Below are positions 4,436-34,768 of a DNA stretch of 34,768 nt, one piece after another. How positions within the stretch are numbered: position 1 is the stretch's first letter; every line of letters begins with the position of its first letter. The notes beneath the pieces were generated by a model. It saw only the letters and a program-made list of their open reading frames with translations, searched no databases and was not told the origin of the DNA. A program made the position numbers and the translations under genes. Origin of the DNA: a virus (Duplodnaviria > Caudoviricetes); the IMG/VR virus record IMGVR_UViG_3300030330_000585, positions 1-34,768 of that record; one strand, 5' to 3'.

Positions 4436-4637
4436 GATCACGATCGGTAAAGATTATAAAAATGACGCCATGCATTATTCTGTTGGACAGGAAGTGTATG
4501 GCGGTCATACCATCTGTGATATTTTAGAAGAAACTGAAAAGTACTCTATATACATTAGAAAAGATAAAGCTGTTATTCCGTGGAAGGACTTTAACAAGAA
4601 TATGGCTATATCTGTAGAGTATAATTTAGAGTACTAA
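4416..4637 (+). CDS. Hypothetical phage protein
   Basis: Likely start is the ATG at 4416 (MSHLIRKITIGKDYKNDAMHYSVGQ); TAATG-coupled to the next gene. Confidence 0.75.
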   Translation: MSHLIRKITIGKDYKNDAMHYSVGQEVYGGHTICDILEETEKYSIYIRKDKAVIPWKDFNKNMAISVEYNLEY

Positions 4638-12745: not shown

Positions 12746-12758
12746 ACTATGTTTATCG

Positions 12759-12790
12759 AAACTACCTCACCTTCGGGTGGGGTAGTTTTA
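12759..12790 (+). terminator. Rho-independent terminator after the capsid gene
   Basis: 13-bp stem AAACTACCTCACC-TTCG-GGTGGGGTAGTTT (one G:U), cUUCGg tetraloop, T-rich 3' flank. Confidence 0.88.
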
Positions 12791-12812
12791 TATTATTTAA
12801 TTATATTATATT

Positions 12813-13640
12813 ATGGCAAAAAAGAAAACACAAGAGGTTGTAGAAGAGCCTCAAATAGAAACTGTAGTTGCTGAAGCACCGAAGCCTAAGCCAACTCCAG
12901 TTGTAGAAAAACCAAAGGATACTTGGGAGTTTAAAGACAGAATTTATTATTTAAAAGGTAGTAAAAAGCCGTTATCGTACAGCATAAGATCTTCTAATTT
13001 ATTTTATTTTGATAAAGATAAAGGATATGAAAGAGAGATTAAGTACTGTCAAAACCAAAGCACTTGCTTTGTAGACGAAATGAAAGGTGATCAGCGTTTA
13101 GAACATATTGTATTTAGAAGCGGAGCCTTGTTTGTACCGAAAGAAAAAGTAACTCTACAAAAATTTTTATCATTATACCATCCTCATAATAGTAAAACTT
13201 TTTACGAGCACAAGCCTGTAGAAATAGCAAAAACGCAGATTGATATTTTAGAAATGGAAGTAGAAGCTTTAGTAGCTGCTAAAAACATTGATATTGAAAT
13301 GGCGGAGGCTATAATGAGAGTAGAAGTTGGTTCTGAAGTATCTAACATGAGTTCTAAAGAGCTTAAACGCGATTTATTACTATATGCTAAGAGAAATCCA
13401 GCGGTGTTCTTAGAACTGTTAAATGATGACAACGTAGTTCTTAGGAACTTTGGTATCAAAGCTACAGAACTTGGTATTATCAAACTTTCAAATGATCAGC
13501 GTCACTTTATGTGGGGATCAAACGATCGAAAGTTAATGACAGTACCTTTTGACGAGCATCCATACACAGCTTTAGCGCATTGGTTTAAAACCGATGAAGG
13601 TATGGAAATATACTCTAATATAGAGAAAAGATTAAATTAA
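12813..13640 (+). CDS. Conserved-type phage morphogenesis protein, function unknown
   Basis: 275 aa with a Pro/Glu/Lys-rich N-terminal linker; lies downstream of the capsid gene between two hairpins. Confidence 0.75.
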   Translation: MAKKKTQEVVEEPQIETVVAEAPKPKPTPVVEKPKDTWEFKDRIYYLKGSKKPLSYSIRSSNLFYFDKDKGYEREIKYCQNQSTCFVDEMKGDQRLEHIVFRSGALFVPKEKVTLQKFLSLYHPHNSKTFYEHKPVEIAKTQIDILEMEVEALVAAKNIDIEMAEAIMRVEVGSEVSNMSSKELKRDLLLYAKRNPAVFLELLNDDNVVLRNFGIKATELGIIKLSNDQRHFMWGSNDRKLMTVPFDEHPYTALAHWFKTDEGMEIYSNIEKRLN

Positions 13641-13648
13641 CTAGTTAT

Positions 13649-13680
13649 GTGACTGCCCTTCGGGGCGGTCACTAAACTTT
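13649..13680 (+). terminator. Stem-loop, probable (weaker) terminator
   Basis: GTGACTGCCC-TTCG-GGGCGGTCAC, 10 bp with one G:U, followed by TAAACTTT. Confidence 0.7.
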
Positions 13681-13691
13681 AAAAACGAATT

Positions 13692-18300: not shown

Positions 18301-21300
18301 TAGTCGGTAGAAGTTTTCCACTTAGATATATCAACAATAACGCTTATGATAATTTAGGCGCTAACGGAACTATAATGCCTCCTAGTATAAATCCCTTTGG
18401 TGAATACAATACTGATTTTAACGGAAACGAAATAACTGGATCTACACCTCTTGAGAATGATACTGTTACTGCTTCAGGAGATAGAGAAAACCACCCTACA
18501 GAGTACTCTTACAATACTGGTGGTACTATGACTAATAATAGTGGCGAACCAACAAATAATACTGGTACGTACACTTGGGGTTTTTTCTCTAACAATAATC
18601 CTTTTTCAGCAGGTGTCACCGCTAGCCACATAAGTAACAATCCTATTGGGGCTTTGAACAATAATCACCAAGACGGTGACTCTGAAAAGTACTGGGAAGA
18701 GGTAGCTAACCAAGACTCTTTCTTTATAGACGGATGCACGGCTTACGATTGGAATGGTAATATACAAGTCAATCACACTAGCAACCAAGGTAACATTATA
18801 TTTGATGAGCAGTTTGATGCCACTATACGAGCTTCTGACTATGACGATGGTTACGAAGGAAGTTACACTGGTAACTGTACTTCTTTTGCTAATCCTAGTA
18901 GGGCTATATGGGGTAGTGGACGTTTAATGGATATTTCTTGGTGTCAGTTTACTAGAAACCACACGCATAATAGTGGCTCAACACCATATGCGCAAAAGCT
19001 TCAAGACTCTGCATCTGGTGATGATCAAGCTGAAGCGCTTGCGTTTATACAAGAATTAGTCACACCAGGTACTAAGTTTAGATTTTCTCGAGATCCAGAT
19101 GCAATTATATATACTACAATAGGCACATATGGATATGGATCATCTAATATTGAAGGCACGTTGAAATACAACGATCCTCTTACGTGGGTGACTTCACAAA
19201 CTACAAATGAAACTGGTGCTTGGGGTATAAGAAACTATGCTAGTACTGGTGTTCCCATGAGTACTAGGGAGAAAAGGATGTTTAACTACGGTAACATAAG
19301 ACAACGTTGGACTATTAGAGTTAGTAATAGTGCTGGTGGTGGTATTGGATCTGCTGGGCATGGTTATGATCCTACGAGAGGTACTTTGCCTTTATCTCAA
19401 GGAGGTCCGCTTACGAACGCTCCAGAGTTTAGAAGGGCTTTGCACCATGATGGTACAGATGCTGACGCTATACAGATTATGATCCCTCTTCTCGACAATG
19501 TTAATAGCGAAGAGACTTTTGTTGATAACCCAGCGGTTTGGGAAATTGAACCTAGAGAAACTGTAGAACTAGATATATACTATCAAGCTTCACCGCTTAT
19601 ACCTATTGTATTAGATAAATCTACCAACGAAGAACTTTTACCTATAGGATCTACGTTTACTTTGCCAGCACAAGAAGCTGCTCAAGGTGTTCTTGAAACG
19701 CCAGAAACTACCCATACTATCACTGGTTGGAGCGATCAAACAATGACGTTTACACCAGCCGTTACAACTGGATTTGTTTTTGAAGAAAATCAATTAATAA
19801 CATTTAATAAATATAGCAACTATTCTTTAAACGCTAGATTAGATGTTACTGCATCAGCGTCAGCGGGTGTTACTCAACTCACTCTTCACGGTGGGCCTAC
19901 AACAAATGAGAATGTTCTTAAGATACCATACCAGACTCACTTTTTAGATTATAATAACTGCTGGTGTTTTGGAAACGGAGTAGAGTCAGATAGAGTAAGA
20001 GACATGTTTAACGATCCTCAAATGGATAACGGCGTTAAAGCGTCAACAGTTGTAGCAGATCCTTCTCTTTTAACTGAAGAGCGAAAAAAGCATGGATTAA
20101 TTTGGTCAGGAATTTACAGTAGTAATACTAGTACAAACGACACTAATCAGTTTATTGCTGCTGAGCCTATCACTAAAGATATAAACCCAGTTTACGGTAG
20201 TATACAGAGGTTGTTAAATAGAGAAACTAGATTAGTTATGTTCTGCGAAGACAAGGTTTTAAGAGCAGTAACAAACAAAGACGCTTTATATAATGCGGAT
20301 GGTAATCCTCAACTAGTATCTAGCAACGCCGTTATTGGTGATGTAACACCGTATGCTGGTAAATATGGTATAGCTACTAACCCTGAGTCTATGGCTGCTA
20401 CTCCAGAGAATACGTACTTTACTGACGTTATGCGCGGTAGAGTTTTAGTGTTGTCGAACTCAGGTGATGGTATTAGGCCTATATCTGACATAGGTATGAA
20501 AGATTATTTTGCTGACTTCATGGCTGACTATGTTGACACTGCTATAGGTAGCTACGATTCTCGTAAAAAAGAATACAATATAACTATAAGTAAAAAATAC
20601 GAGCCGTACCAAGCTCAATCACACGAGCAAACTACAGTGTCATATAGTGAGTATTCTAAAGGCTGGATAAGTTTTAAGTCTTATTATCCAGACGCTGGTA
20701 TTAGCTTAAATAACAAATACTACACGTTTAAAAACGGTTTAATATACGAGCATCACTACGAACAAGACGCTGGAACTATCTATAGTAGGAATCAATTTTA
20801 TGGAACTCAATACACGTCTGACATAACACCTATATTTAACGGCATGCCAGAGTCTGTTAAAGGCTTCAATTATTTTAAGTACGAAGGATCAAACGCTAAA
20901 ATCCCTCTTTTTCAAGAGCTTCATAATCAAAATTACTTTACAGGAGATTACAGTGTTAACGACGGTTTAATTGATACAGATAATGTTACTGATGGTGAGT
21001 ATTACAATATTTATTTTAAAGTAGAAAATCAACTTGGATGGTATATAGACAACGTAACTACTAATCTTCAGACATGCGGTAATGTGTATTTCTTAAATAA
21101 GGAGGGCAAGCACTACGCGTATCCTACTGGTGAAACAACTAGTTTATCTAATCTTGACACTAAAGAGTTTAGCGTACAAGGTATAGGTATGGCTAATATA
21201 GTTCATAACGATAACACCGTGGGAGATCAAGCTACGTTAACATTTACTAACAACTTGAATCCTGTTCAGAATTTTGGTGGCGCTGGTCAAAGTGATTTTA

Positions 21301-23369
21301 CCGGTAACGCGGATCAGTTAGGTTTAGGTAGATGGACGATTACTGATGCTACTTATAACGCTACTGTAGGTACCGCTCTAGGTAGTAGCCAAACTGTAGA
21401 AATGACTATAAGTCCTTTTTACGACGATGTTTATACTGGTTTCCCTGTTAGCGCTAGTAATTTTAAGCTTGACGGCGCGACAGAGAGTCCAGCAGGTACG
21501 TTTACTGTAGACAATAACACAGGTGTAAAAAGTTCAAGTGGAAGTGCAGGAGCTGGAGACGGCCTTGAATTAGATTCTGCTGTAGCAAGCGTTGTGTTTT
21601 CTGACAACGGTGTTGCTGGAGATCCTGCTAATACCGTAAAAGTGACAGTAAACTTAAATGCTAGCTTTATACCAACAGGAAGTGGCACTACTACTCTTGA
21701 TATAGATGAAGTTGTAGCTAAAACTGCAAGAGAAAGATCTTCTTGCTTGCTAGTCCAATATGATAATTTATCTAACGCAAGCGAAACCGCAAACGCAGTA
21801 TCAGGAATTACTACCGCTAACGTGCTAAACTTATCGCACGTTATAAATCAGCACAGTGGTAATGTTAACGAAGGAGAGTCTAACTTAATTGCTCACTATA
21901 CGTTTGCAACAACTGGTACTAGTTACTATGTTGGCGGTGTAGCTAGTCCTACTGTTAGTTTTGAAAGTTTAGGAGCATATGCGCCTTATTATTCTTACAC
22001 TATAGATCTTGCGCTTACAGGTAGTAATATAACTTCTTTTGTAGTTAAAATATATTACGACCCACCTGTTGTTAGTTATTTAAGCGTTGATCCGCCAGAT
22101 ATTTGTGCACTAGCGCATAAAGCTGTAGTTAGAGCTCAAGTAAAAACGCCTGACGTAGATCTTCATGATATTCGAAGCTTATCATATACGCCTGATGTGA
22201 GCTCTATTGGTGGTATTAAAACGATTACTGTTAGAGGCGCTAAAAACGCTAAATATAAGCTTTCAGTACAAAAAAAGCAAGGATTAAACAATCCTGTTAC
22301 TACTACCACAGGTGGTTATTATGATTTTAGTAAAAATTCTTTTGTAGATGATGAGTCAGGTGTGATAGGAACTATTGATGCGACCGGATTCGTTGATCAC
22401 CTTGTGTCTTTCCCAAGCGTAAGCGCTGATACTAGATATGACATTATTGTAGATGGTATAGTAAACGGCTCTACTTTTTCTTTAGCAGATTCGATACCAA
22501 CAATTGCTGGTGATGCAACTATTACGCAACATGGTACTAGAACACTAACGTTATCTCCTACGACTCAAACAGCAGCTAATTTTGGAACTTTACCTACTGT
22601 AGATATAATTAGACCTGCTAGACACAATCGTGATAGATATTATGATTTACCTTTCTTAAAAATAAATCAAACAGGTACTACTAAAAACGTAGCTTCTACT
22701 AGACTGTTGTTAGATAAAGAGAATAAAAACATCAAGCAAGGTATGTTTGTTATAGATCCGTCTAGTAATACATCTATACCACATAACACAACTGTTGTAG
22801 GTGTAAGAAGCAACGCTATAACCCTAAGCAACGCGTGTACTATACCTGACAACACTAGATTGACATTTATAAAAGGTAACGCTAGTTTTGTGCCGTTTAC
22901 TTTAACGATACCACCTGGAATTGGTAAAACTTTATATTTAAATTCTAGCGCTAGCGTAGTTGATTCATTAGCAACAGAATCTGTTTCTTTCGTTCCTCAC
23001 ATGCCTACGTCTGACGATATTACAATTAGACCAAGCACTTCGTTATATACACCGGCACAGCAATTTGAGTTTGTTAGCAGAGTGAATGTTGGAGACATAG
23101 TCTCTGGTAATAAAGTTAGCACTAATAATCTTACGGTGGCAGCAACAGACACTTCGGCGTTTACTATAACTTTAAATCAATCAGACATAGGCGCTGAGCA
23201 ATCAGACAAGTTATCATTTTCTGGTTCAGCAGCAGCCGCCAAAGTTGTGCACGCTACTTCCGCTATAACTGACGGAGATTTAATTATAAACGGTTATCTT
23301 AAAATTGATGACGTAAACACCAGGGCTAACATACCTGTATTTATTGATAATCTAGTAAACGTAAACTAA
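15393..23369 (+). CDS. Giant tail stabilisation (muzzle/nozzle-like) protein with inserted fibre-like domains
   Basis: 2658 aa, beta-rich. Core-looking blocks: MNKDMDERLVPNGEYRDANNI, ITGINILEDFIYFTD, FSYRYKY, RLIYGNY, YQVGVVFSDEYGRE, FGNGVESDR, YGSIQRL, YGIATNPES, GWISFKSY. Confidence 0.75.
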   Translation: MAELRQDFSKARMNKDMDERLVPNGEYRDANNIQIATSDGSDIGTVQSLLSNYLRNRTEQNASEGNYNHIYTDGSQSTDFKHTVVGTVADASKDKIYYLVSGGDLYNANGYPSVRKDYIIEYDTVTETNKYVFVDIFEVDTTVSGAPGSTTTFHIALGAGDSQYDIGIRVGMNITTTATTPNTTLNTDLVVTAIAYDTDGGTNKWKITTNKAHGLSDTNAIAFEAKRVLNFSKFNLITGINILEDFIYFTDNVHEPKKISISRSIAGTGGLVELNTEPTDIFTGNTQHFHTRLVKDSSSYEESQNTLRVVVNDAGTLPVYVDESHVTVIRKSPTQPLKLKMFRQESSKINSQGEENPVTGTIENFMHDFNGNVLGPSGQLFSDADGFFFTSEIDIREGDIILGTLEENLDLETAEEDYFDYRMLCLDSPVTGPNNLTAGASPNNTFVFSLLSMSSAAQQYFDDQFLPLQNLHVKIQEKDIIFQHKFPRFSYRYKYQDGEYSTFAPFSEVAFLTGDYEYKPNKGYNFGMSNQLRTLHLTDFVGHEDIMPEDVVEIDILYKETNNPTVYSVETLKPTDDGWPGSQQLQDQNNDNRRGFIELDTDLIHAVIPSNQLLRPYDNVPRKALAQEITANRLIYGNYVQNYTIDSNPRLSVNYQRTKYSDGGFEYAPPSVKSLRNYQVGVVFSDEYGRETPVLSSDASSVFIPIQASADRNRLAVALDVKNTTIPDWAKYFSYYVKEPTAEYYTMAMDRWYNAEDGNIWISFPSADRNKIQEDDTIILKKAAGSNEAIKVDNRYKVLAISNEAPDFIKETKKVLGTVVASLGTIGNTSTGNLYPLPGVNRISVTSADFIKQFGHNLHVITPDKLLLRIEGAGETSDLYEVAALTRLIEGTGPIGGGNFAITTKKPFGEDMSFTSTTNSGLDAIDEIRLTLIQVDVLNKPEFDGRFFVKIFKDPTLAKYVLIQQQEDLVVGRSFPLRYINNNAYDNLGANGTIMPPSINPFGEYNTDFNGNEITGSTPLENDTVTASGDRENHPTEYSYNTGGTMTNNSGEPTNNTGTYTWGFFSNNNPFSAGVTASHISNNPIGALNNNHQDGDSEKYWEEVANQDSFFIDGCTAYDWNGNIQVNHTSNQGNIIFDEQFDATIRASDYDDGYEGSYTGNCTSFANPSRAIWGSGRLMDISWCQFTRNHTHNSGSTPYAQKLQDSASGDDQAEALAFIQELVTPGTKFRFSRDPDAIIYTTIGTYGYGSSNIEGTLKYNDPLTWVTSQTTNETGAWGIRNYASTGVPMSTREKRMFNYGNIRQRWTIRVSNSAGGGIGSAGHGYDPTRGTLPLSQGGPLTNAPEFRRALHHDGTDADAIQIMIPLLDNVNSEETFVDNPAVWEIEPRETVELDIYYQASPLIPIVLDKSTNEELLPIGSTFTLPAQEAAQGVLETPETTHTITGWSDQTMTFTPAVTTGFVFEENQLITFNKYSNYSLNARLDVTASASAGVTQLTLHGGPTTNENVLKIPYQTHFLDYNNCWCFGNGVESDRVRDMFNDPQMDNGVKASTVVADPSLLTEERKKHGLIWSGIYSSNTSTNDTNQFIAAEPITKDINPVYGSIQRLLNRETRLVMFCEDKVLRAVTNKDALYNADGNPQLVSSNAVIGDVTPYAGKYGIATNPESMAATPENTYFTDVMRGRVLVLSNSGDGIRPISDIGMKDYFADFMADYVDTAIGSYDSRKKEYNITISKKYEPYQAQSHEQTTVSYSEYSKGWISFKSYYPDAGISLNNKYYTFKNGLIYEHHYEQDAGTIYSRNQFYGTQYTSDITPIFNGMPESVKGFNYFKYEGSNAKIPLFQELHNQNYFTGDYSVNDGLIDTDNVTDGEYYNIYFKVENQLGWYIDNVTTNLQTCGNVYFLNKEGKHYAYPTGETTSLSNLDTKEFSVQGIGMANIVHNDNTVGDQATLTFTNNLNPVQNFGGAGQSDFTGNADQLGLGRWTITDATYNATVGTALGSSQTVEMTISPFYDDVYTGFPVSASNFKLDGATESPAGTFTVDNNTGVKSSSGSAGAGDGLELDSAVASVVFSDNGVAGDPANTVKVTVNLNASFIPTGSGTTTLDIDEVVAKTARERSSCLLVQYDNLSNASETANAVSGITTANVLNLSHVINQHSGNVNEGESNLIAHYTFATTGTSYYVGGVASPTVSFESLGAYAPYYSYTIDLALTGSNITSFVVKIYYDPPVVSYLSVDPPDICALAHKAVVRAQVKTPDVDLHDIRSLSYTPDVSSIGGIKTITVRGAKNAKYKLSVQKKQGLNNPVTTTTGGYYDFSKNSFVDDESGVIGTIDATGFVDHLVSFPSVSADTRYDIIVDGIVNGSTFSLADSIPTIAGDATITQHGTRTLTLSPTTQTAANFGTLPTVDIIRPARHNRDRYYDLPFLKINQTGTTKNVASTRLLLDKENKNIKQGMFVIDPSSNTSIPHNTTVVGVRSNAITLSNACTIPDNTRLTFIKGNASFVPFTLTIPPGIGKTLYLNSSASVVDSLATESVSFVPHMPTSDDITIRPSTSLYTPAQQFEFVSRVNVGDIVSGNKVSTNNLTVAATDTSAFTITLNQSDIGAEQSDKLSFSGSAAAAKVVHATSAITDGDLIINGYLKIDDVNTRANIPVFIDNLVNVN

Positions 23370-23370
23370 C

Positions 23371-23760
23371 ATGCCATCAGCAACATTAAATTTTTCAGCA
23401 CCAATAAATGTGTCATGTCAAGTAGGTGACACCGCTTACTATGTAGACACTAACTCAGTAGGTGGTTTTACAGTATCTACTGACTCTATGGCAACTCAAG
23501 AAAACACTATTATAGAGATAGGTGAAATACGTGAAATACAAGGGCCAAAAACTAATACGCCGGCTATAATAGTTGAAACAACTTTAGGTTACAATGAGTT
23601 AAACGGGTTAAATAAGTTTATATTCTTTTCAAAAAACAATAAAGCTAATTTAAGCTCACCTTTAGGTTATTACGCTAGCGTTAAGTTCGTAAATGATAAC
23701 AACTATAGAACTGCAGAGCTCTACGCTATTGAGGCGGACATATACGAAAGTAGTAAATAA
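23371..23760 (+). CDS. Small tail-associated protein
   Basis: 129 aa starting 1 nt after the large tail gene; ends LGYYASVKFVND...AELYAIEADIYESSK. Confidence 0.65.
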   Translation: MPSATLNFSAPINVSCQVGDTAYYVDTNSVGGFTVSTDSMATQENTIIEIGEIREIQGPKTNTPAIIVETTLGYNELNGLNKFIFFSKNNKANLSSPLGYYASVKFVNDNNYRTAELYAIEADIYESSK

Positions 23761-23763
23761 ACA

Positions 23764-23795
23764 CTAAAAAGTGTAACTATATATCAGTACACTTT
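23764..23795 (+). promoter_or_regulatory. Candidate promoter/operator, copy 2, with an 8-bp inverted repeat
   Basis: CTAAAAAGTGTAACTATATATCAG resembles 1256-1279. AAAGTGTA (23768-23775) and TACACTTT (23788-23795) form a perfect inverted repeat. Confidence 0.4.
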
Positions 23796-24283: not shown

Positions 24284-25072
24284 ATGGCATTTGCGTTAAG
24301 TACTGTAGCAATTGTAGGTGGAGCTATAGCCGCTGCCGGAGGCGTAGCTAAAGCTATTGATGGTGGTATTAAAGCTAAAGAAGCAAAGCTAGACGCTGAA
24401 AGGGCTGAAAAAGAGATGGAGAAGCAGAAGAATCTCTTTGCTAGTTTAGATACTAGTAATCCATACCTTAATATGGAGAACACTATGGAAGATCTTACGG
24501 TAAACCAGAAAGAAGCTCAGTTTATGGCTCAACAATCACAGCAGTCGCAAGCTAATATATTGCAAAGCATGCGTGGAGCGGCTGGAAGCTCTGGTATTGC
24601 AGCGCTAGCTCAAACACTGGCTAATCAAGGTGCTTTAGATGCGCAAAAAGCCGCGGCTTCAATTGGAGCACAAGAAGCAGCTAATCAAAAGTTACGTGCA
24701 GAAGAAGCTAGTAGAATACAAGGTCTTGAGCGTGAAGGCGAACTTATTAGTAGAGAAGCTGAAATGGGTAAAGTATCATCTTTACTTGGCATGGCAGCAG
24801 ACGAAGCTGCTGCAGCGCGTCAAGCACAGGCTGAGTTTAGAGACCAAATGTTTGAAGGTATATCAGATACTGGTGGCGCTCTCATGAGCATGGGTGGTGC
24901 TAAAGGTGGTGTTGGTGGTAGTGGTAGTAAAGGTGGCGTTGGTAGTGATATAGAAAAGTTGCTTGGAGATTTAAGCGAAGAAGAACTACAAGAGCTAATA
25001 AGAAAAACAGGTGGAGACGCTTCAGGAGGAGGTACAGGCTTACAATTACCAGGCGGTGATGGTTTAGTTTAA
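24284..25072 (+). CDS. Probable internal virion/ejection protein
   Basis: Gly/Ala hydrophobic N-terminus (AIVGGAIAAAGGVA), Gln/Ala coiled coil and Gly-rich tail; typical position after the nozzle. Confidence 0.65.
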   Translation: MAFALSTVAIVGGAIAAAGGVAKAIDGGIKAKEAKLDAERAEKEMEKQKNLFASLDTSNPYLNMENTMEDLTVNQKEAQFMAQQSQQSQANILQSMRGAAGSSGIAALAQTLANQGALDAQKAAASIGAQEAANQKLRAEEASRIQGLEREGELISREAEMGKVSSLLGMAADEAAAARQAQAEFRDQMFEGISDTGGALMSMGGAKGGVGGSGSKGGVGSDIEKLLGDLSEEELQELIRKTGGDASGGGTGLQLPGGDGLV

Positions 25073-25084
25073 ATTTTAAAAATT

Positions 25085-26239
25085 ATGGCAGAATCAACAA
25101 GATCATTAGATTACGGTTTAAGTGGAGATATATTAGACAGGGTTGCTGGCGCTAGAGAGGCTAAGTACGAACCTGGCAAAAGAACTATATACGACACAGC
25201 TGTAGATTTAGGCACAAAAGCTTTAGAAAAAGGTAAAGAAAAACAAGCTGCTCAACAAGAGTCTTTAGCTGATTGGGATAGTGCTTTCGACGCTATGGGT
25301 GATCGTGGTTCTTGGGCTTCACCTCAGTTATTCGATCAATTCCAGGAGTTAGAAAGAGGATATAGAGATGCTTATATAGAAGCTGTTAGATCTGGTAACA
25401 AAGCTGATCAGCAGAGAATGTTAAAAGAACAAGCAGCTAGATCATCATCTCTACAGGGTTGGAAAGACGTAATGGAAACAGCTAAACAAATAAACGATGA
25501 AGTTGGTTGGGGCGCGCTTGTAACTAGAAACTCTAAAAGTAAGGCTATATTACAAGCTTTAGCTAAAGGTGACGGTAGCGCTGTACCTGTTGTTGGTGAA
25601 AATGGAGAGTTGTTATTTCAAATAAACGGCGAAAGATATAGCCGTAGTCAAATAGATGATTTAGTTGCTAAAGGTACAAATCCGAAAGCATTAAGATCGC
25701 AATTTTTGAACGGCGCGGCTAGTCAAATGGAAGCTGGTTTAAAAAACGGTGTATTTGAATACAGTTTGGTTAACGAAACAAACTTAAATAGCCTTGATAA
25801 CGATAAAATGTATACATACATATATGATGCGTGGACAGGACCTAAGTCATTTGCTGAGGAGATTAAAGCTATTGAAGGAGCTACGTTTTCAATACAAGTG
25901 CCAGAGAATCACCCTTTAGACACAACTGGTGATGGCACGGTAGATATACAAGACTTTCAGGTTAAAGGCATAGATATTGATACTATGTTAGAAGCTATGC
26001 AAGATCCAGAAAATATAGACATAGCTAAGCAAGTTATTGCAGACTACATGACTATAAAGCAGAAAATTAATTACGAGAAAGGTAAAAAAATATATGACGA
26101 AAGACAGCAAGGTAGGTTTGCGAATATGACAGATAAACAGCAAATAGACGCTATGGTAGAAGCTGGTGGTATTACTAAAGACGCGCTTCTAGCAATGTAC
26201 CCAGATTCAGAAAGCTACATTAACAGTTTAAATCTATGA
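25085..26239 (+). CDS. Probable second internal virion/ejection protein
   Basis: 384 aa, helical; ATGA-coupled to the giant ORF; has an EF-hand-like loop DTTGDGTVDIQDF. Confidence 0.6.
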   Translation: MAESTRSLDYGLSGDILDRVAGAREAKYEPGKRTIYDTAVDLGTKALEKGKEKQAAQQESLADWDSAFDAMGDRGSWASPQLFDQFQELERGYRDAYIEAVRSGNKADQQRMLKEQAARSSSLQGWKDVMETAKQINDEVGWGALVTRNSKSKAILQALAKGDGSAVPVVGENGELLFQINGERYSRSQIDDLVAKGTNPKALRSQFLNGAASQMEAGLKNGVFEYSLVNETNLNSLDNDKMYTYIYDAWTGPKSFAEEIKAIEGATFSIQVPENHPLDTTGDGTVDIQDFQVKGIDIDTMLEAMQDPENIDIAKQVIADYMTIKQKINYEKGKKIYDERQQGRFANMTDKQQIDAMVEAGGITKDALLAMYPDSESYINSLNL

Positions 26240-29200
26240 ACGAAGAGTTAAAGCTACTAGTATCAAGACTTAGAGAGCAAGGTGTGCCTCAAGAGAAGAT
26301 CAACTTGCTAATCAACAAGTATATGTCTAAACAAGAAGATTTAGACTTAAACATACCTGACGCTAATGTTATACCTGTTAGTCAACGTGACTTAGACGAT
26401 GGTTTAAAGCCTGAGTCATATGTTAACTCTACTGCTTGGAGTTCATCAGGTTTAGATAGATCTATATACTATGATGAGCAAGGAAACTTACTTACGGTAA
26501 ATGCTGCCGGTGTTCCGTTTGATCCACTTACAGACGTTGGTTATTCTTTAGCATTAAAGGACGAAGAAAGAAGAGAAGAGTTGATAAGAGAGTCAGAAGC
26601 TCCAGAGATTACAACTACTGAAGGTTTATTTACTGTTACAGATAAAGATCAAGAGAACGCTGTTAACGCAGCTAACGCTACTTACGACAGCTATGAAGCT
26701 CTAGACCAGCCATACGACAGCTCTAATCTACGTTACGAAACAACTAATTATATAGGTGCTGAAGGTGCTAGTACAGAAACCGTAAGAATATCAACTTTAG
26801 CAGACGGAGAAACTCAGGTTAGAGATGTAATGGATCCTAGTCAACGTCTTTACTATGAAGGCTTAGACGTTGTAATACCTGGCGAAACTCCTCGACAAAG
26901 AGAAGCTAGATTTATGAGTATCTGGCTAAGTCAAGGCGAAGCAATGGTAAGAAATCCTAACTTACCTAGACCTCAAGCCTTTTCAAGCTCAGCTTCCGAA
27001 TTAACTTTTACCGCAGAACAATATGCTCAATGGAGACTTGGTTTAGCTAGAGATCCTAACAACGATTTATACGATCCGTATTTAGCTAGCAATGTTTATG
27101 ACAAGTTTGAAGAAGGTACTGATTTAAACAAATTATACCAAGTAGAAAAAACTTTACTAGCTATACAAAGGTTAGAAAAAGAAACCGGCGAAAAAATAAA
27201 CTTTACTCTAGGCGAAGATAAAGTAAGTGATTTTCCTGGTTTACAAGAGACAATTGACAACATATCTAACGATGATCCAGAGTTAAAAGATATGATTGTT
27301 AAAAGTGAATCTAGAATTAATAGAAGCAATCAGATCAGCCAGCAAGCTCTAGAATTAGCTGAGCAACAGATTGAAGAAGAGAAAGATTTTCCTTCAAAAC
27401 CAGGTATAGCAAACTATTTTTTTGAATCTCCTGAAGCTCAAGAAGAAGCCGCTAAGCAAGCTGAACAAGATTTAGATTTTCTTGAAGCAGACATCAAAAA
27501 AAAGTCTTTACAATACAACGCTATATCAGAGCAATATGCAGACGTTAACAGTCGATTAACAGATGTAAATAAAGAGCTTCAAAAAGAAGAATATAAAGAT
27601 CCTAAAGCTCATATAGAGAAAATAAAAGCCAAATACGATTTAACAACGCGAGAAGGTGTTGAAGCAGCTAATAAAGAAATACAAGAGTTTATTGGTAAGT
27701 ACTCTAATTTAATCGAAGAGTATAATACTCTAAGACCTGCGGTTCAAGACACAGCTAATGCTTTAATAAGATTAGAGCAAGAAATTAGCGATCTTGGAGT
27801 TAGAGAACAAGATTTAAACGCGTTTACAACTACAATTAGTAAAAACCATAGAACGGCTACTAAAATTGCTTTAGCTTTTGCTAACGAAACAGTTGATCTA
27901 GTTCAAAGCGCCGCTGAGTTTGTTTATATGGTAAATCCTTTAGGAGCTCTAGCTGATGAGTTAGTAGATTACGCGGGTGAAGATTCTTTGATTGGTACTA
28001 TTGTTGAAGTAGCAAGATACGCTACAGCTATACCTACTGGCGGAATAACTTTATACTCTGGAGAACGAAGAGAAGATGTAACTCAAGCTATTGACGGATA
28101 TCAGCAAAACGTAAGCTCGATGGTTGGCGAAGCTGTTCGCTTTGATGATATTGAAGGCGTTGGAGATGCTATAGAGTGGGCTTTAGTAACTGGTGCAGGT
28201 CAAGTTACGCAGCTAGCTTTACTTGCCGCTACAGGTGGTACAGCTGGTTTAATAGTCATGGGTGCTACAGCTGCTGGTCAAAAGTTCTCAGCTATGGATC
28301 AGCAAAGAGATTTATACAGGCAAACTGGTGGCATGTACGGCCAAAACCATAATTTTGCTACTATGTATGCTAACTCTATTACTACAGGTAGTATAGAAGC
28401 TTTATCTGAAAGAGTAACTTTAGGGCTATTAAAAGGAACTGGTGGTGTTGTGTCTAATAGAGTATTTAAAAGCGTAGGTTCTAAAAAAGCGACTGATATG
28501 TTTAGGCGTCGCTTGTTTACAAAAGAAAACTTAAGGTACTCTACTAAGAAACTTATTGACATAGCTGAGGAAGGCGGTTCTGAAGCGTTAGCCACTATAG
28601 GTGGTAATTACATTGATAGGTTAAGCGGGGATAAAACTGTAAATATATTTGATGACGTAGCAGAGTCTTTCGTGACTGGTGCGTTGATAGGCTCTACTTT
28701 ATCAATGCCACACGTGTTTAAAGACGCATACAGTGCTTTCCAAAGTGTAGAAGCATCTCAAGCTATAGCACAAAACTTTGACAGAATACAGGCTAATCAC
28801 GATGTAATAAACGATCCTAAATCTTCTCAACAAGCTAAGGACGCAGCGTTAGCGGCAATTGAAGAATTAACTGCACAAAACGCAGAGTTTATAGCGTTAG
28901 ATTTAAAAAGAGTTGATTCTCTTTCAAACGCTCAAAAAAGAGAGCTGGTTGAGATAGAAAAATCTCAAAGAAACTTAGAAGTACGGTTTGCCGAGATTAA
29001 TGCATCTGATATGACGTTAGAGCAAAAGCAAAAAATAGCTAACGAAATGAACGCTGGCTATAACAGAAACCTTGCTCGTAAAAACGAAATACTAAAAAGC
29101 ATACCTACAGATGAAGTTCTTAAGAACCACGAAAACGAAATAAAGCGTATAGAAGAAGAGAGCGCTAGATTAGTTGCTGAAGGTGGCCCAGCTATCAATG

Positions 29201-32200
29201 TTACTAGAGCAAATGGCAAGAACGACGCAGATATTGCAGAGCAGTTTAAAACGTGGAAGAATAACGCTAAGAAAAAAGGCAATGTAAAAATTGCAGCTTC
29301 GGAAGACGGTACGCAGGTTTATGGTGCTATGGTGCCAATTTTAGATAATAGCGGAAATGTTATTAACTACGAGATGTTCTTCAATGATAAGAACATTTAT
29401 GAAGACGGTGTCACTACTACTGGATCACACGAGCTATTACACGCGGCGGTATTTAACACTATAAGGGCTAATCCTGCCTTAAGAAATAGATTTGGTGATG
29501 CTATAAATAGAATACTAGAAGGGCCTGGTGTAAAGATATCTAATAAAGCTCAAAAAAAGTTAGACCGCGTTAATCAGTATAGCAAAGAACAGAGAGGTGA
29601 AGAGCTATTTGCGATAGTATCTGAACTAATGGTGTCTGGTGATATAACCATCGATAGTGGTGCTGTGGGTAGGTTTAAAGACCTATTACGTAGAACTTCT
29701 ATGCAGACAACAGACACTGACATAGAATTTAATGATGATACTGACGTTAGAAACTTCTTAAAAGATTATTCAAGATCAAGAAAGAAAGGTCTTGCTGATA
29801 AACGTATAACAAGCTTGTTTACTAAATCAGCTAAAGGTAAGTTAGTTGAAACTGAGATTAGTAGAGAAGAAGCTAAAAGAGTTGTTGAAGGTAGATTTGA
29901 AGAGGCTTTGCAAGAAAGTTATATGAATACGCTGTCTGCTAGTATTAGATCTAATCCAGACCTACGTCAAGAGTTTGATCAATTTACTAAAAACGAAGAT
30001 GGAACTCCTAAGTACAAAACTCAACAAGAGTGGGAGAGCAGTCAAGACTACTTAGATGCATACAAAAAGATAGTAGAAACTAACCTTCTAGATGGCTTAA
30101 TTCAGACCAAGATGGTAGAGCGCGGATTGCCGCCTGCTGCTCTCAGAGATTTTACTAGAAAGGTTAAAGACAATATAAGTCTAAGATTCTTACCTTCAAT
30201 AGATAAGAAAACAGGTAGAGTAAAACCTGATTCTGGTTATAGGATTTCAAACGATAGTTTGTTTGGCTGGTTAACAGGTGTTGCTGGTGGAGCTGGTAAG
30301 TCTGTTATATACAGAGCTAAAGGTGATGTTATGAACGAGTATAAAGAAAGCGGTAATCTTGAAACTGTTTCTCTTGATGCTCCTATAGGTGAAACAACTA
30401 CGTATGAAGCTACTATAGAAGCTGAAACTGACGCGTTCATGCAGCAGCTTGAAGAAGCTGATTTAAGTAAGAATCGTGCAGAGCGTGAAGCTAGAAAGCC
30501 AAAGAGAGTTGTTAACGAGCTAAACATCGACAGTGACGGTAAAGCCGCCATAAACAAAACTGTAGCAGACGCGGCTATTGACATAGCTGGATTACAGTAT
30601 AAAGACGTTAAAAAGCTTGGTAACTCTGTCGACGCGCCGCTATATAAAACACTACAGGTTATATCAGAAAAGTTTGGCGTAAATCCTAAAAACGTTATAA
30701 AATCTGCTAACTTAAATACTAAGCAGCGTAAAGCAGCGCAGCAGTTTATTAACAAAAATGCAGAGTTTTTATTAGAAATGTTACCTGATGGTGAGACTAG
30801 AAGCGGAGAAGCTACTGGTGTACCTAGAGTATTGTTAAATAATTTCTACGAAAAAGGTGAGAGATTAAAGTATAAAGACGGAGCTACGGCTGCGGGTAAA
30901 TTTACACAGCAAAAGCGAACTGACATAACACTTGAGCAGTTTAAAGAAGCTTTCGGTATTAGACCAGACGGTACTTTAGATAATAACAGAAAATACGACG
31001 GCGCTATAAACGCTTTAATTAATCAAGCTACTATGTTAGCTAACAACCAAGCTTTACGTGAGAACGCTATGAAGAGAGGCACTGTGTCAGAAGCGGTAGT
31101 TGCTAAATTAGGTGAAGGTAAAGCTGAGGTAATGTTTAGTGTTAAGGTAAGAGACAAAGTTAAAAACACTTTTGATCAACTATACCCTGATCTAATAACA
31201 GCTGTAGCAGCATCTAACACTGGCGATATAGACTCTATAAGAGTAGCTGTTGAGAGTGTTTACGGTAAGGTACTTAGTACGTCTGAAATTAATAGGCTAG
31301 TAAATGAAATATACGATCAAGCCGACGAGTACAACACTATAAACCAAGACCTTAAAGGTGTTGGCGTAGACGTGCCTGTGAGCTTAGAGCAGTTTTTACA
31401 AGATAAATACGAAGGCAAGAACGTAGAAAAAGGAATATTAAAAGCTTTAGAGCCAAAATTACCAAAAGATGAAGATGGTAAAACAATTAGAATAGGTACT
31501 CATTTCTTAAATGTAGATAGAATAAATAATCAACGATCTGTGCCTGGTCTATTTGTTGATGGAGCTAGAGCACAACTAGACAAAAACGGAAATAGAATTT
31601 ATTCAGACAAGCAAATAGCTGAAATGCTTATAGCTCACGTCGCACCTATGTTTGCTGGCTCGGGTAGAATAGCTGATCGTAGATTTATTGTACAAGAAAC
31701 AAAGCCTAGTGGTGAAAGAGTTGTGGTTAAAGATCCCAATTGGAAACCAACTAGAATAAATAAAAAAGGCCAAGAGGTACCTCAGAAAAATAGAAAACAA
31801 GCTTGCGAAAGTATGCCTGATTTTATTGGTATACTTAACACCCTTGGTTTAGGAAATATAGAAAAGGTTGGAACAGGACCTAACTCGTATTACACACTAG
31901 ATGGGGTTGCTTTAGATACAACCTTAATACCTGAAACGTCAGAGGCTAGACTGTCAAGGTCTAAGACAGAAGAGGCAGAAGCTGAGCTATTTGAGCAAGG
32001 TAAAAAGCAGGCTGAAGACGCGAGGGTTGTTACAAAAATTATACTAGATTCTTTGTACGCTAAAGTTATCGATCCTAACAGTAGTTACGACCATGTTGAT
32101 TTCGCTATGACTTTAACCAGCCTTGGCTCTAGTATGCAAGCACCTATGAGACGAGCTGCTTTGTTTGAGTACTTCATGGAAGGTATTGAAGATGTAGTTG

Positions 32201-34768
32201 CTAATAGAGGTGACAAAAGTATCGGATCTGTCACTGAGTTTGAGCATTTAAAACCTCAAGAAGAAGCTATTGGAGAGATTATACACTCTTACTTAACTAC
32301 TGGTGAGCTTGATATGCGTATATTTGAAGGCGGTGGACCTTATAGACCATATAAGACTGGGGTTATTAGCAAGAGCATGGATGATGCGGTAACAGATGCT
32401 GGTCATAAGTTTACTTCACCAAGACTAGGAAGAGGTGACAGTAGACAATACTCGTTCGAAGCTATTCGTGATAATAGAATTAGACCTATTAGAAGTATTG
32501 ATCCAGCTAAAAAAGGCACTAATAAAGAGTTTGTTGGTAGAGAGTGGGTGCAAATGAATGACGCTATAGCTAGAGACGATGGTACTGTAATAAGAGATAT
32601 GAAGGTTCTAGGTGGTATATTTGGAAACATATCTTTTTCGAAGCGACCTGCTAAAAACAAAGGAGCTAGCGTACTTGATTTTGATGACACATTAGCTACA
32701 ACTAAATCTAACGTGTTGTTTACTGCGCCTGACGGAACCAAAGGTAAGCTAAACGCAGAAGAGTACGCTAGAGATTACGTTGAGCTGCTTGGTCAAGGCT
32801 ATGAGTTTGATTTTTCAGAGTTTAACAAGGTGGTTGAAGGAGCTCCAGGTCCGTATATGGATAGGGCTAAAAAACTAGCTAAAAAGTTTGGCACTGATAA
32901 CATATTTATATTGACTGCTCGCGCACCACAATCTCAAGAAGCTATATTTGAGTTTATGAAATCGCAGGGCTTAGAGATACCTATTGACAATATTATAGGT
33001 TTAGGTAACTCTACTGGTCAAGCTAAAGCTAATTGGATCGCGGAAAACTTAATAAAAGAAGGTTATAATGATATAGAGTTTGCAGATGACGCGTTGCAAA
33101 ACGTCGAAGCTGTTAAAAACATGTTTGAGCTTTTTGACGTTAAAAGTAAAGTACAACAAGCTAAAGCAGAGTTTAGTAGGCGTGCGCCTAAACAAATGAA
33201 TGACATCATTGATGAAGGTGCCGCAGACCTTGATTCAGACTTTAACATTATACTAGAAGAAACTCAAGGTGTAGCTAGATTCAAGAAGTTCTCTGCTGGT
33301 AAAGCTAGACAGCGTGGTAAAAATAAAGGTAGATTTAAGTTCTTCATACCACCATCAGCAGATGACTTCGCTGGTTTGCTATATAGTTTCATGGGTAAAG
33401 GAAAGCAAGGAGATAAGCACCATAAGTTTTTTAAAGTTAACTTATTTGATCCGTTTAGTAAAGGCATAAGGTTATTAAATAGAGCAAATCAAATAGCTGC
33501 TAATGATTTAAAAAACCTACGTAAAGCTTTTCCTGATGTACGTAACAAGCTTAAAAATAAACTACCAGGCTTAGAATATACTACTGAAGATGCTATAAGA
33601 GTATACAACTGGAACAGACAAGGGTTTGATGTACCGGGTTTAGCACAAACAGATTTAAATGCTATTGTAAAAGCTATTGAAGGTGATGCTAAATTAAAAG
33701 CATTTGCAGATGGAGTTAGCGTTGTTAACATAAACGAGCCAATAGCTCCTGATGACTCGTGGCTTGGCGGAACTATAGCATCTGATATCAATGAAGCTCT
33801 TGAAAACGCTAGATCAACTTACTTGCAAGAGTGGATAGATAATAAGAACGCTATATTCACTGAAGCTAATATGAATAAAATTGAAGCCGTATACGGTTCT
33901 AATTTTAGAGAAGCTTTAGAAGATGTGTTATTCCGTATGGAAAACGGTGGTAATAGATCTCAAGGTCAAGGTAGATTAATGAACAACTTTACTAATTGGA
34001 TACATGGTTCTATTGGTACTACGATGTTCTTTAACGCTAGATCAGCTATGCTGCAAATGATATCTAACGTTAACTTTATCAACTGGAGCGACAACAATAT
34101 GCTAGCGGCTGCTAAAGCGTTTGCTAATCAACCTCAATACTGGAAAGATGTAGCAATGATATTTAACTCTGACTTCTTAAAACAAAGAAGAGGTAGAATA
34201 CAGACTGATGTAAACGCTGCTGAGCTACTAGCTGAGATACGTGATTCTAAAAACCCAATGAAGAAAGCTACAGCTTACTTACTTCAATTAGGTTTTACAC
34301 CAACGCAAATTGCGGATAGCTTCGCTATTGCAACTGGTGGTGCTACGTTCTACAGAAACAGAGTTAATTCGTATATCAAAGAAGGTATGTCTAAGAAAGA
34401 CGCTGAAACAAAAGCGTTTGAAGATATGATGGAGATTGCTGAAGAAACTCAACAGTCTACAAGAGAAGATAGAATATCTCAACAGCAAGCTTCACCTCTC
34501 GGTAAGTTTATACTTGCTTTCCAAAACACACCTATGCAGTACAATCGTTTGATGAAAAAAGCTGCTCAGGATTTAGTTAACGGAAGAGGTAGTGCTACAG
34601 CCAATGTCTCTAAGATCGTTTATTACGGTGCTATACAGAATATGATATTCTACGGGCTTCAGCAGGCTTTATTTGCCGCGATGTTCGGTGACGACGAAGA
34701 AGATAAGATCGATGATAAGCAGAAAGGGCGTATGATCAATGGTATGCTTGATACTGTATTAAGAGGTT
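26236..34768 (+). CDS. Giant polyvalent (probable ejection/cargo) protein, at least 2844 aa, 3'-truncated
   Basis: ATG at 26236 overlaps the upstream TGA (MNEELKLLVSRLREQG...). The frame reads open in the segments I translated, and the ORF track lists no closed plus-strand ORF here, consistent with no stop before the window end. Contains HELLH, sigma-like blocks and HAD motifs I-IV. Confidence 0.92.
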   Translation, partial: MNEELKLLVSRLREQGVPQEKINLLINKYMSKQEDLDLNIPDANVIPVSQRDLDDGLKPESYVNSTAWSSSGLDRSIYYDEQGNLLTVNAAGVPFDPLTDVGYSLALKDEERREELIRESEAPEITTTEGLFTVTDKDQENAVNAANATYDSYEALDQPYDSSNLRYETTNYIGAEGASTETVRISTLADGETQVRDVMDPSQRLYYEGLDVVIPGETPRQREARFMSIWLSQGEAMVRNPNLPRPQAFSSSASELTFTAEQYAQWRLGLARDPNNDLYDPYLASNVYDKFEEGTDLNKLYQVEKTLLAIQRLEKETGEKINFTLGEDKVSDFPGLQETIDNISNDDPELKDMIVKSESRINRSNQISQQALELAEQQIEEEKDFPSKPGIANYFFESPEAQEEAAKQAEQDLDFLEADIKKKSLQYNAISEQYADVNSRLTDVNKELQKEEYKDPKAHIEKIKAKYDLTTREGVEAANKEIQEFIGKYSNLIEEYNTLRPAVQDTANALIRLEQEISDLGVREQDLNAFTTTISKNHRTATKIALAFANETVDLVQSAAEFVYMVNPLGALADELVDYAGEDSLIGTIVEVARYATAIPTGGITLYSGERREDVTQAIDGYQQNVSSMVGEAVRFDDIEGVGDAIEWALVTGAGQVTQLALLAATGGTAGLIVMGATAAGQKFSAMDQQRDLYRQTGGMYGQNHNFATMYANSITTGSIEALSERVTLGLLKGTGGVVSNRVFKSVGSKKATDMFRRRLFTKENLRYSTKKLIDIAEEGGSEALATIGGNYIDRLSGDKTVNIFDDVAESFVTGALIGSTLSMPHVFKDAYSAFQSVEASQAIAQNFDRIQANHDVINDPKSSQQAKDAALAAIEELTAQNAEFIALDLKRVDSLSNAQKRELVEIEKSQRNLEVRFAEINASDMTLEQKQKIANEMNAGYNRNLARKNEILKSIPTDEVLKNHENEIKRIEEESARLVAEGGPAINVTRANGKNDADIAEQFKTWKNNAKKKGNVKIAASEDGTQVYGAMVPILDNSGNVINYEMFFNDKNIYEDGVTTTGSHELLHAAVFNTIRANPALRNRFGDAINRILEGPGVKISNKAQKKLDRVNQYSKEQRGEELFAIVSELMVSGDITIDSGAVGRFKDLLRRTSMQTTDTDIEFNDDTDVRNFLKDYSRSRKKGLADKRITSLFTKSAKGKLVETEISREEAKRVVEGRFEEALQESYMNTLSASIRSNPDLRQEFDQFTKNEDGTPKYKTQQEWESSQDYLDAYKKIVETNLLDGLIQTKMVERGLPPAALRDFTRKVKDNISLRFLPSIDKKTGRVKPDSGYRISNDSLFGWLTGVAGGAGKSVIYRAKGDVMNEYKESGNLETVSLDAPIGETTTYEATIEAETDAFMQQLEEADLSKNRAEREARKPKRVVNELNIDSDGKAAINKTVADAAIDIAGLQYKDVKKLGNSVDAPLYKTLQVISEKFGVNPKNVIKSANLNTKQRKAAQQFINKNAEFLLEMLPDGETRSGEATGVPRVLLNNFYEKGERLKYKDGATAAGKFTQQKRTDITLEQFKEAFGIRPDGTLDNNRKYDGAINALINQATMLANNQALRENAMKRGTVSEAVVAKLGEGKAEVMFSVKVRDKVKNTFDQLYPDLITAVAASNTGDIDSIRVAVESVYGKVLSTSEINRLVNEIYDQADEYNTINQDLKGVGVDVPVSLEQFLQDKYEGKNVEKGILKALEPKLPKDEDGKTIRIGTHFLNVDRINNQRSVPGLFVDGARAQLDKNGNRIYSDKQIAEMLIAHVAPMFAGSGRIADRRFIVQETKPSGERVVVKDPNWKPTRINKKGQEVPQKNRKQACESMPDFIGILNTLGLGNIEKVGTGPNSYYTLDGVALDTTLIPETSEARLSRSKTEEAEAELFEQGKKQAEDARVVTKIILDSLYAKVIDPNSSYDHVDFAMTLTSLGSSMQAPMRRAALFEYFMEGIEDVVANRGDKSIGSVTEFEHLKPQEEAIGEIIHSYLTTGELDMRIFEGGGPYRPYKTGVISKSMDDAVTDAGHKFTSPRLGRGDSRQYSFEAIRDNRIRPIRSIDPAKKGTNKEFVGREWVQMNDAIARDDGTVIRDMKVLGGIFGNISFSKRPAKNKGASVLDFDDTLATTKSNVLFTAPDGTKGKLNAEEYARDYVELLGQGYEFDFSEFNKVVEGAPGPYMDRAKKLAKKFGTDNIFILTARAPQSQEAIFEFMKSQGLEIPIDNIIGLGNSTGQAKANWIAENLIKEGYNDIEFADDALQNVEAVKNMFELFDVKSKVQQAKAEFSRRAPKQMNDIIDEGAADLDSDFNIILEETQGVARFKKFSAGKARQRGKNKGRFKFFIPPSADDFAGLLYSFMGKGKQGDKHHKFFKVNLFDPFSKGIRLLNRANQIAANDLKNLRKAFPDVRNKLKNKLPGLEYTTEDAIRVYNWNRQGFDVPGLAQTDLNAIVKAIEGDAKLKAFADGVSVVNINEPIAPDDSWLGGTIASDINEALENARSTYLQEWIDNKNAIFTEANMNKIEAVYGSNFREALEDVLFRMENGGNRSQGQGRLMNNFTNWIHGSIGTTMFFNARSAMLQMISNVNFINWSDNNMLAAAKAFANQPQYWKDVAMIFNSDFLKQRRGRIQTDVNAAELLAEIRDSKNPMKKATAYLLQLGFTPTQIADSFAIATGGATFYRNRVNSYIKEGMSKKDAETKAFEDMMEIAEETQQSTREDRISQQQASPLGKFILAFQNTPMQYNRLMKKAAQDLVNGRGSATANVSKIVYYGAIQNMIFYGLQQALFAAMFGDDEEDKIDDKQKGRMINGMLDTVLRG
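29310..29660 (+). other. Zincin metallopeptidase (MPTase-like) domain within the giant ORF
   Basis: YGAMV...YEMFFN strands, HELLH at 29428-29442, EELFA at 29599-29613. Confidence 0.75.
30058..30700 (+). other. Sigma70-like module within the giant ORF
   Basis: AYKKIVETNL, MVERGLP, GYRISNDSLFGWL, VSLDAPIGE and TLQVISEKFGVNPKNV occur in sigma region order 2.1, 2.2, 2.3, 3.2, 4.2. Confidence 0.5.
32662..33140 (+). other. HAD-superfamily phosphatase domain within the giant ORF
   Basis: Motif I VLDFDDTL (DFDDT 32677-32691), motif II ILTAR (LTAR 32911-32922), motif III K (33025), motif IV FADD (33079-33090). Confidence 0.85.

Follow-up and report, generated by a model that had tools for sequence, protein, structure and literature searches.

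The stretch of viral DNA analysed here in full (34,768 nucleotides, hereafter the window) ends within a giant gene, and the question raised by this locus is what so large a protein, encoded last in a block of virion genes, does for the phage that carries it.

Genomic setting and family of the giant protein

In gene content the window corresponds to the late region of a podovirus genome: it encodes GroEL/GroES, terminase, portal, capsid and ring-type proteins, and also a muzzle-like protein. Terminase identity is 46% with Elemovirus and 37-38% with Cellulophaga phages phi18:3 and phi38:1, and thus the phage fits with the 'group 2' marine Flavobacteriaceae phages, for which a sigma-70 gene is noted in the accessible text of PMC5332604. 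The genes that matter most here lie at the 3' side of the window:

15393-23369, + strand: virion protein of muzzle/nozzle type, by which the podovirus tail block is recognised (crAss_MUZ_C, E 6e-4; phrog_14478)
23753-23781, + strand: promoter-like site of class II, GTAAA-N14-TGTAACTATA, at the head of the ejection block 23807-24284-25085-26236
24284-26239, + strand: two smaller candidate ejection proteins of 262 and 384 aa (synteny with MS-detected gp120/gp121 of phi18:3)
26236-34768, + strand: giant ejection-type polyprotein, 2844 aa present and about 3,100 aa in full (translation; complete homolog L001)

The product of the gene at 24284 matches phi18:3 gp120 (E 3e-4), and the corresponding block also ends with a giant gene in the cultured phages phi18:3, phi38:1 and Elemovirus. 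In phi18:3 this giant is gp123, whose annotation as a virion protein rests on MS/MS data.

Several other features of the late DNA were recorded. The muzzle-like protein has 2658 aa with a long beta-rich extension, and its equivalent in G002 is split (1836 + 632 aa). Positions 11-1247 and 4637-5227, 5' of the terminase gene, encode a phage GroEL and two GroES-like proteins. Small Lys/Arg-rich ORFs starting MAFKMK or MAYK are clustered at 2079-2929 and at L082:15460-17620 and recur across relatives; they possibly encode DNA-condensing core proteins. C(T)TCGG hairpins between late genes (12745-12813 and 13648-13691), a type enriched in the late intergenic DNA of relatives, are likely terminators. 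The product of a phage gene at L082:10955-13168 has, at its C-terminus, a sorting domain for type IX secretion (Por_Secre_tail, E 3e-10), which supports a Bacteroidota host.

The first-pass annotation had described the giant as one ORF from 26236 to the end of the window, and translation confirms the single frame: 26236-34767 (+) is a single ORF of 2844 codons with zero internal stops, open at its 3' end. Its closest complete homolog, L001, has 3067 aa (86% identity across query residues 1-2844), a comparison that puts the part lost beyond the contig end at about 260 aa. In L001 the full-length protein closes with two Cys3-His zinc-finger-like repeats (DUF5763-like; L001:12760-12949), and such repeats are found in 20/51 relatives.

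Relatives were collected by searching viral contigs with the last 723 aa of the giant; 285 were confirmed, and among the best 80 of these 285, complete unsplit giant ORFs have 2,069-3,818 aa. The giant is split into two ORFs at loci L025 and L039, but L026, which has the same coordinates as L025, is intact, so that sequencing error is the likely cause of the splits. A profile of the EH domain (see below) matches 917 clusters (50% identity), and 114 of the best 150 are at least 1,900 aa long. Among these 114 long proteins, chosen by the EH profile alone, the zincin is present in 97, the sigma-like module in 91, S7 in 81, HAD in 73 and the C-terminal domain in 110. The domain order is the same in 65/65 giants having the zincin, sigma-like, S7, EH and C-terminal domains. 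The family to which the giant belongs is large; its members are proteins of 2,000-3,800 aa from uncultured podoviruses of the marine Flavobacteria type. Compared as a whole with Pfam, PHROGs and PDB sequences, the giant gives no useful match, tblastn of cultured phages returns one weak HAD match only, and profiles of five domain alignments yield nothing convincing among PDB sequences.

Domains of the giant protein

The giant (all on the + strand) is divided as follows:

26236-28032, +: variable N-terminus with coiled coil, aa 1-600 (profile matches in 8-12 of 83 family ORFs)
28033-29235, +: Gly/Ala-rich hydrophobic region and helical segment, aa 600-1000 (common to the last-gene virion giants of cultured phages)
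29353-29955, +: zincin-like metallopeptidase motif domain, HELLH...EE, aa 1040-1240 (motif, family profile)
29968-30390, +: predicted sigma70 domain-2-like module, then SLDAPIG linker, aa 1245-1385 (predicted model, fold search, HMMs)
30493-31143, +: S7, a conserved helical domain in place of sigma region 4, ending in the junction motif MFS
31213-32625, +: EH domain, aa 1660-2130, with an invariant Glu-His (motif, confident compact model)
32653-33180, +: HAD-type phosphatase, motifs I-IV (DFDDT, LTAR, K, FADD), with FS[KR] junctions on both sides
33193-34768, +: helical C-terminal region of no named family, ending with the contig (the most conserved domain, 110/114)

The motifs listed in the first-pass annotation (HELLH/EELFA, EHLKP, HAD I-IV and AEETQQS) were all found where it had placed them: HELLH at aa 1065 (nt 29428), EELFA at aa 1122, EHLKP at aa 2003 (nt 32242), DFDDTL at aa 2148 (nt 32677), LTAR at 2226, FADD at 2282 and AEETQQS at 2735, with SLFGW at aa 1341 and SLDAPIG at aa 1379. 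In alignments whose rows were chosen by profile, so that there is some circularity, H1065/E1066/H1069/E1123 of the zincin are invariant in 49/49 homologs, the EH pair in 26/26 and HAD motifs I-IV in 25/25. Judged by this conservation, the zincin, EH and HAD motifs are not due to chance.

The N-terminal 600 residues give weak Pfam matches of coiled-coil type. The region that follows contains one hydrophobic segment (aa 657-681, nt 28204-28278). In a 10-sequence database, profiles of aa 600-1000 match phi18:3 gp123 (iE 2e-20 and 1e-11), Elemovirus gp18 (7e-23) and phi38:1 gp101 (2e-15), scores that may be inflated because the segment is Gly/Ala-rich. Separate profiles of aa 600-860 and 860-1000 match the same three proteins in the same order (iE 7e-23 to 3e-6). 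This segment is likely a packaging/translocation module. The earlier reading of the giant as a virion or ejection-type protein is well supported by this homology to the MS-detected gp123.

The zincin profile also matches Elemovirus gp18, and matches the zinc endoprotease 1c7k weakly (E 0.78). HExxH is present in 91/97 zincin-bearing giants of the EH-profile set, and the invariant Glu lies 58 residues past the first His. HExxH with a Glu in a later helix is the MPTase signature given in the available part of PMC5512222 (section 8), and the protease motif read from HELLH...EELFA stands.

For the segment downstream of the zincin, the model of aa 1245-1650 shows two domains (pLDDT 82, pTM 0.59). 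In a VIA fold search of 48,161 chains, the top 14/14 and 29/35 rows are sigma factors or sigma-containing complexes; these include three rows with titles lacking 'sigma' that we assigned as sigma, and the sigma rows align to model residues 1-140. The best match is 7d7d_F (Z 5.9, rmsd 3.3, 96 aligned residues), which we take to be T4 gp55; Z values up to 5.9, being under 8, are in the range that VIA calls possibly a common helical arrangement. Foldseek against the PDB gives no match for the sigma-like/S7 model at E <=0.001. Among the members, Sigma70_r2 matches 1/48 (E 5e-4, below the curated cut-off), and NCBIfam sigma models of six different families weakly match 11/48 (E <=0.1, best 0.001). 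The window's own segment has no sigma HMM match, its profile finds no sigma among PDB sequences, and the module has no profile similarity to the phage's own stand-alone sigma (hhalign probability 0.2). No residue of the module is invariant, with 7-92% identity among members. The SLDAPIG linker after it is presumably region-3.2-like. A sigma domain-2 fold is predicted for aa 1245-1385 from the model, with moderate Z. Of the sigma70-like blocks first placed at aa ~1275-1490, the part to aa ~1385-1400 is retained as a sigma2-like fold, whereas aa 1420-1636 is the separate helical domain S7.

S7 is a candidate reader of an upstream promoter element. Pfam region 4 has no match in the giant or in the relatives examined, and S7 is scarcely covered by the fold search. 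A likeness of S7 to TIGR-Tas chains (VIA Z 4.0-4.2 only) was treated as noise. An S7 profile search of 110-457-aa proteins gave three matches.

The EH pair is further present in 114/114 long proteins. The EH model (aa 1660-2140) is one unit of high confidence (pLDDT 90.8, pTM 0.88), for which neither Foldseek against the PDB nor VIA gives a clear fold match. The model shows a strand-EH...strand-helix order. For a beta-beta-alpha fold of HNH or His-Me nucleases, the T5 SciA endonuclease alone came up, as a weak match at rank 27 (Z 2.5, rmsd 4.5, 104 aligned). The nuclease-like module of the first-pass annotation is not supported as a fold; the domain is nuclease-like by motif alone, and a nuclease function would be a guess. 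The one BFVD match to the model, A0A218MLT5, is probably a member of the giant family auto-named for its kinase, and ESM Atlas matches of the C-terminal and EH domains are unnamed viral clusters.

The HAD motifs were correctly read from aa ~2148 onward. Pfam HAD matches at E 0.03, DUF2608 scores above cut-off in relatives, and the HAD profile has no match among PDB sequences, Pnkp included. Stand-alone HAD relatives of ~180 aa exist. The domain is dispensable, as it is present in only 45/51 and 73/114 giants. In 8/51 relatives a P-loop kinase (AAA_33, E 2e-10) accompanies it, and in those displayed the insertion point falls between HAD motifs I and II. Such kinases (AAA_33/Zeta-like) lie in or beside the HAD cap at L022, L029, L037, L054, L057, L060, L066 and L067, and L008, L009 and L012 have other inserts of 67-88 aa at that position. 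Further cassettes (DUF6934-like; a 470-aa insert) enter directly after HAD. Cassettes between HAD and the C-terminal domain are seen at L011:10541-11038, L069:10520-10990 and L029:8699-10051 (DUF6934-like; an unassigned one of 450 aa), and the junction sequence is repeated at those of L011 and L069. F[SA]x/YS[KR] windows occur after HAD in 32/44, after S7 in 19/36, before HAD in 13/45 and from zincin to sigma-like module in 3/22, compared with 1,007/10,200 random windows, the junction counts being inflated by shared ancestry.

An LPD38-like C-terminus had been suggested, but 0/32 members match Pfam LPD38 at E <=0.1. The EH, S7 and C-terminal domains belong to no named family.

Promoter-like motifs in relatives and the proposed reader of class I

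A bipartite class I motif, TACAAA(CT)AAATACGA-N9-GATAATA, was searched for in 50 of 72 relative records. Its core is found in 30/50 records and in 14/14 records at least 90% complete, with 0-1 matches in the reversed-pattern control; G033, one of these 14, has only a weak match and carries the variant AAATATA; AAATACA is another genome-specific variant. In 19 genomes plus the window, 77 core matches were found at spacer 10, all 77 on the early strand and none on the late strand, and other spacers gave 0-1 matches. Relatives have 4-12 copies each, standing 5' of the outermost early genes, and flanking bases outside the search seed are also conserved. The window has no class I sites because it is late DNA from which the early region is absent. 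The nearest relative with an early region, G001 (giant 81% identical), has seven copies 5' of small early genes, and in 5/7 an ATG lies 6 nt past GATAAT, so that leaderless early mRNAs are predicted. Class I sites with an ATG 6 nt after GATAAT are also present at L083:9358-13322 (-).

TAnnTTTG, given as the Bacteroidetes promoter consensus in the part of PMC10309648 consulted, is near just 2/77 class I sites. A motif search of 1,307 ORFs in 19 genomes found no polymerase motif. Four relatives whose giants lack the sigma-like module (three cultured, and MW202828) have 0-1 stray class I matches. A link between a sigma2 subtype and class I absence was dropped, since five of the six contigs concerned do not extend into the early region, and the remaining one carries a variant motif.

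Matches to a second motif, class II (GTAAA-N14-TGTRAYTATA), number 22 on the late strand and 11 on the early strand; the reversed control is not clean, with 7 late and 0 early, i.e. 33 matches versus 7. Only the bipartite form was counted, as the half-motif TGTRAY alone has no strand bias. Eight of the 11 early-strand matches are directly 3' of a stand-alone sigma70 gene. This phage sigma (Sigma70_r4, E 6e-6) is present in 12/19 genomes with 51-73% identity, and in 13/13 copies a class I site lies upstream of its gene, at a distance of 381-8,380 bp. Being downstream of class I, with class II directly after it, the stand-alone sigma is poorly placed to start class I. At L083:5959-6714 (-), and in 11 other genomes, the stand-alone sigma70 gene is followed by a class II site and an ERF/replication operon. 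A profile, A9, matching 62/62 middle regions was set aside as circular.

These observations are best accommodated if the giant is a polyprotein that is injected and probably cleaves itself, and if its sigma2 module lets host RNA polymerase begin early transcription, the task of a virion polymerase in phages of the crAss/N4 type; we consider this reading probable. The giant would be packaged and ejected ahead of the DNA via the aa 600-1000 module, as homology and gene position suggest. The zincin may then free the modules at FS[KR]-type junctions, a cleavage to which the motifs point. The predicted sigma2 fold would melt GATAAT (-12 to -7, in assumed numbering), and S7 or the EH domain would read TACAAA..AAATACGA at about -37 to -22; in this step the motif is seen and its pairing with the module is presumed. 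Class I transcripts would include that of the full-length stand-alone phage sigma70, which would in turn drive class II for replication and virion genes, the block of the giant included. HAD, with the optional P-loop kinase, may serve in end-healing or as a nucleotide phosphatase against early host defence, the weakest step of the scheme. Class I sites are seen in relatives only and are known here from sequence. The 'host-takeover toolkit' of the first-pass annotation, a vague wording, can be narrowed to a factor for early transcription that has a promoter class to itself.

The main weakness of this scheme is that the class I motif is near-invariant while the sigma-like module is very divergent and the stand-alone sigma well conserved, which fits with a conserved class I reader other than the giant. 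Class I might accordingly be read by the stand-alone sigma70, in a loop of middle promoters that weak host-driven transcription would prime, with the module of the giant a degenerate or decoy sigma fold. The identity of that sigma over the 12 genomes is in keeping with an invariant motif, the gap from CAAACT to GATAAT is 17 bp, and in G033 the sigma gene is preceded, at 514 bp, by a loose class II match. However, class I precedes the outermost early genes, its best-conserved element, AAATACGA, would fall within the spacer, and class II, the second bipartite class that begins directly after the stand-alone sigma gene, also needs a reader; we regard this alternative as unlikely. Were the giant mainly a structural ejection/translocation protein and its sigma likeness a chance helical bundle, a Z below 6, the negative Foldseek result and the lack of an invariant residue would be accounted for. 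It would be harder to explain why 29/35 top VIA rows come from one family, why six sigma HMM families match 11 independent members, and why the module and a dedicated motif co-occur, and a chance bundle seems very improbable.

Class I could also be a Flavobacteriia host promoter or regulator site, the injected sigma2-like module inhibiting or competing for the host core polymerase. Near-perfect copies do occur in flavobacterial intergenic DNA, 5' of genes with no phage-ORF homolog (0/13), a count that also gives no support to their capture from these phages as morons. Several are aimed into genes whose products are small secreted or membrane proteins; examples among loci L224-L236 (G054-G063) are L229:5025, L224:5324 and L233:5050 and 6784. 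One downstream gene we take to be TerB-like, and one site lies 58 bp past a Zorya II operon. Yet scanning 596 Gb of prokaryotic genomes for the exact 21 bases yielded just 66 stretches, many on short MAG contigs, and 14 of 16 genomes chosen for a match have merely 1-2 sites at <=2 mismatches, mostly perfect. In the other two the sites are clustered, 10 in one and 4 in the other, and the cluster of 4 precedes phage-like early genes. Neither the scan nor the 16 genomes revealed a regulon-size set, no sigma gene is evident by eye in ORF listings beside host sites, and the phages have genome-specific variants (AAATATA, AAATACA), so that a host-site origin appears quite unlikely. Some single host sites are probably chance. 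One perfect site, at L237:6132 (G064 C9), is on a Prochlorococcus-assembly contig with unrelated phage-like genes, and precedes a gene with homologs among the early genes of the phage clade. An extension of the injected-factor reading is that the marine phage clade injects a polyprotein-derived chimeric sigma (sigma2 plus a new DNA-reading domain) and runs a cascade of two sigmas with no polymerase of its own, while hosts place perfect class I copies before island or defence genes as injection-triggered traps; this fuller version is tentative and rather doubtful.

Comparison with known systems

The polyvalent proteins of Iyer et al. 2017 (PMC5512222, as far as its text was available) are large multidomain proteins encoded near virion genes, with unrelated enzymatic modules, among them a zincin with HExxH and a downstream Glu for which autoproteolysis is proposed; a zeta-like kinase is also mentioned. 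The giant differs from them in that no LPD family passes, and the terms 'sigma', 'phosphatase', 'Flavobacteri' and 'Cellulophaga' have 0 occurrences in the main text of that paper, of which the supplements may list related architectures. Like polyvalent proteins, the giant joins several unrelated domains in one polypeptide with variable cassette insertions and is encoded among late virion genes, so that the modular polyvalent build first proposed for it is upheld.

Phages are known to reach early transcription by two routes, host promoters or a packaged polymerase. In crAss-like phages (PMC10172136; bioRxiv 2020.03.07.982082) and with the N4 vRNAP (PMC13434306), giant cargo solves early transcription, and the crAss-like cargo gene is likewise 3' of the muzzle gene, its product being ejected ahead of the DNA (PMC10172136). 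Unlike these polymerases, the giant is predicted from its model to be a specificity factor for the host enzyme. A label of crAss-like virion RNAP was rejected for it: there is no DFDxD, its DFDD[T] is HAD motif I with an invariant Thr, and there is no PDB sequence match.

The sigma factors of T4 (gp55) and phiEco32/7-11 are stand-alone proteins made during infection. As phage-encoded reduced sigmas that retarget host polymerase (PMC8948821), they resemble the sigma-like module, which differs in lying within a virion polyprotein and would act first. The giants phi18:3 gp123, phi38:1 gp101 and Elemovirus gp18 share gene order, the aa 600-1000 module and GroEL with this phage, with terminases 37-46% identical, but have no match to the sigma-like, S7, EH, HAD or C-terminal profiles, and their phages have no class I clusters. 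T4 Pnkp is a kinase/3'-phosphatase. Its HAD DxDxT phosphatase joined to a P-loop kinase is paralleled in 8/51 giant relatives; in these, however, the kinase is inside the HAD cap, it is absent from this giant, and there is no sequence or fold match.

A full-text literature search, with most subscription papers beyond its reach, returned no report of a virion-delivered sigma factor. If the proposed reading is true, packaging a specificity factor would add a third route to early transcription, used in a large family of marine Flavobacteria phages, and would offer an orthogonal sigma/promoter pair for Bacteroidota, for which the promoter sequence and a candidate module of 140-400 aa are now defined. 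What is known in the giant is its polyvalent cargo class and its crAss cargo slot; what is new is the predicted embedded sigma2-like module with a promoter class.
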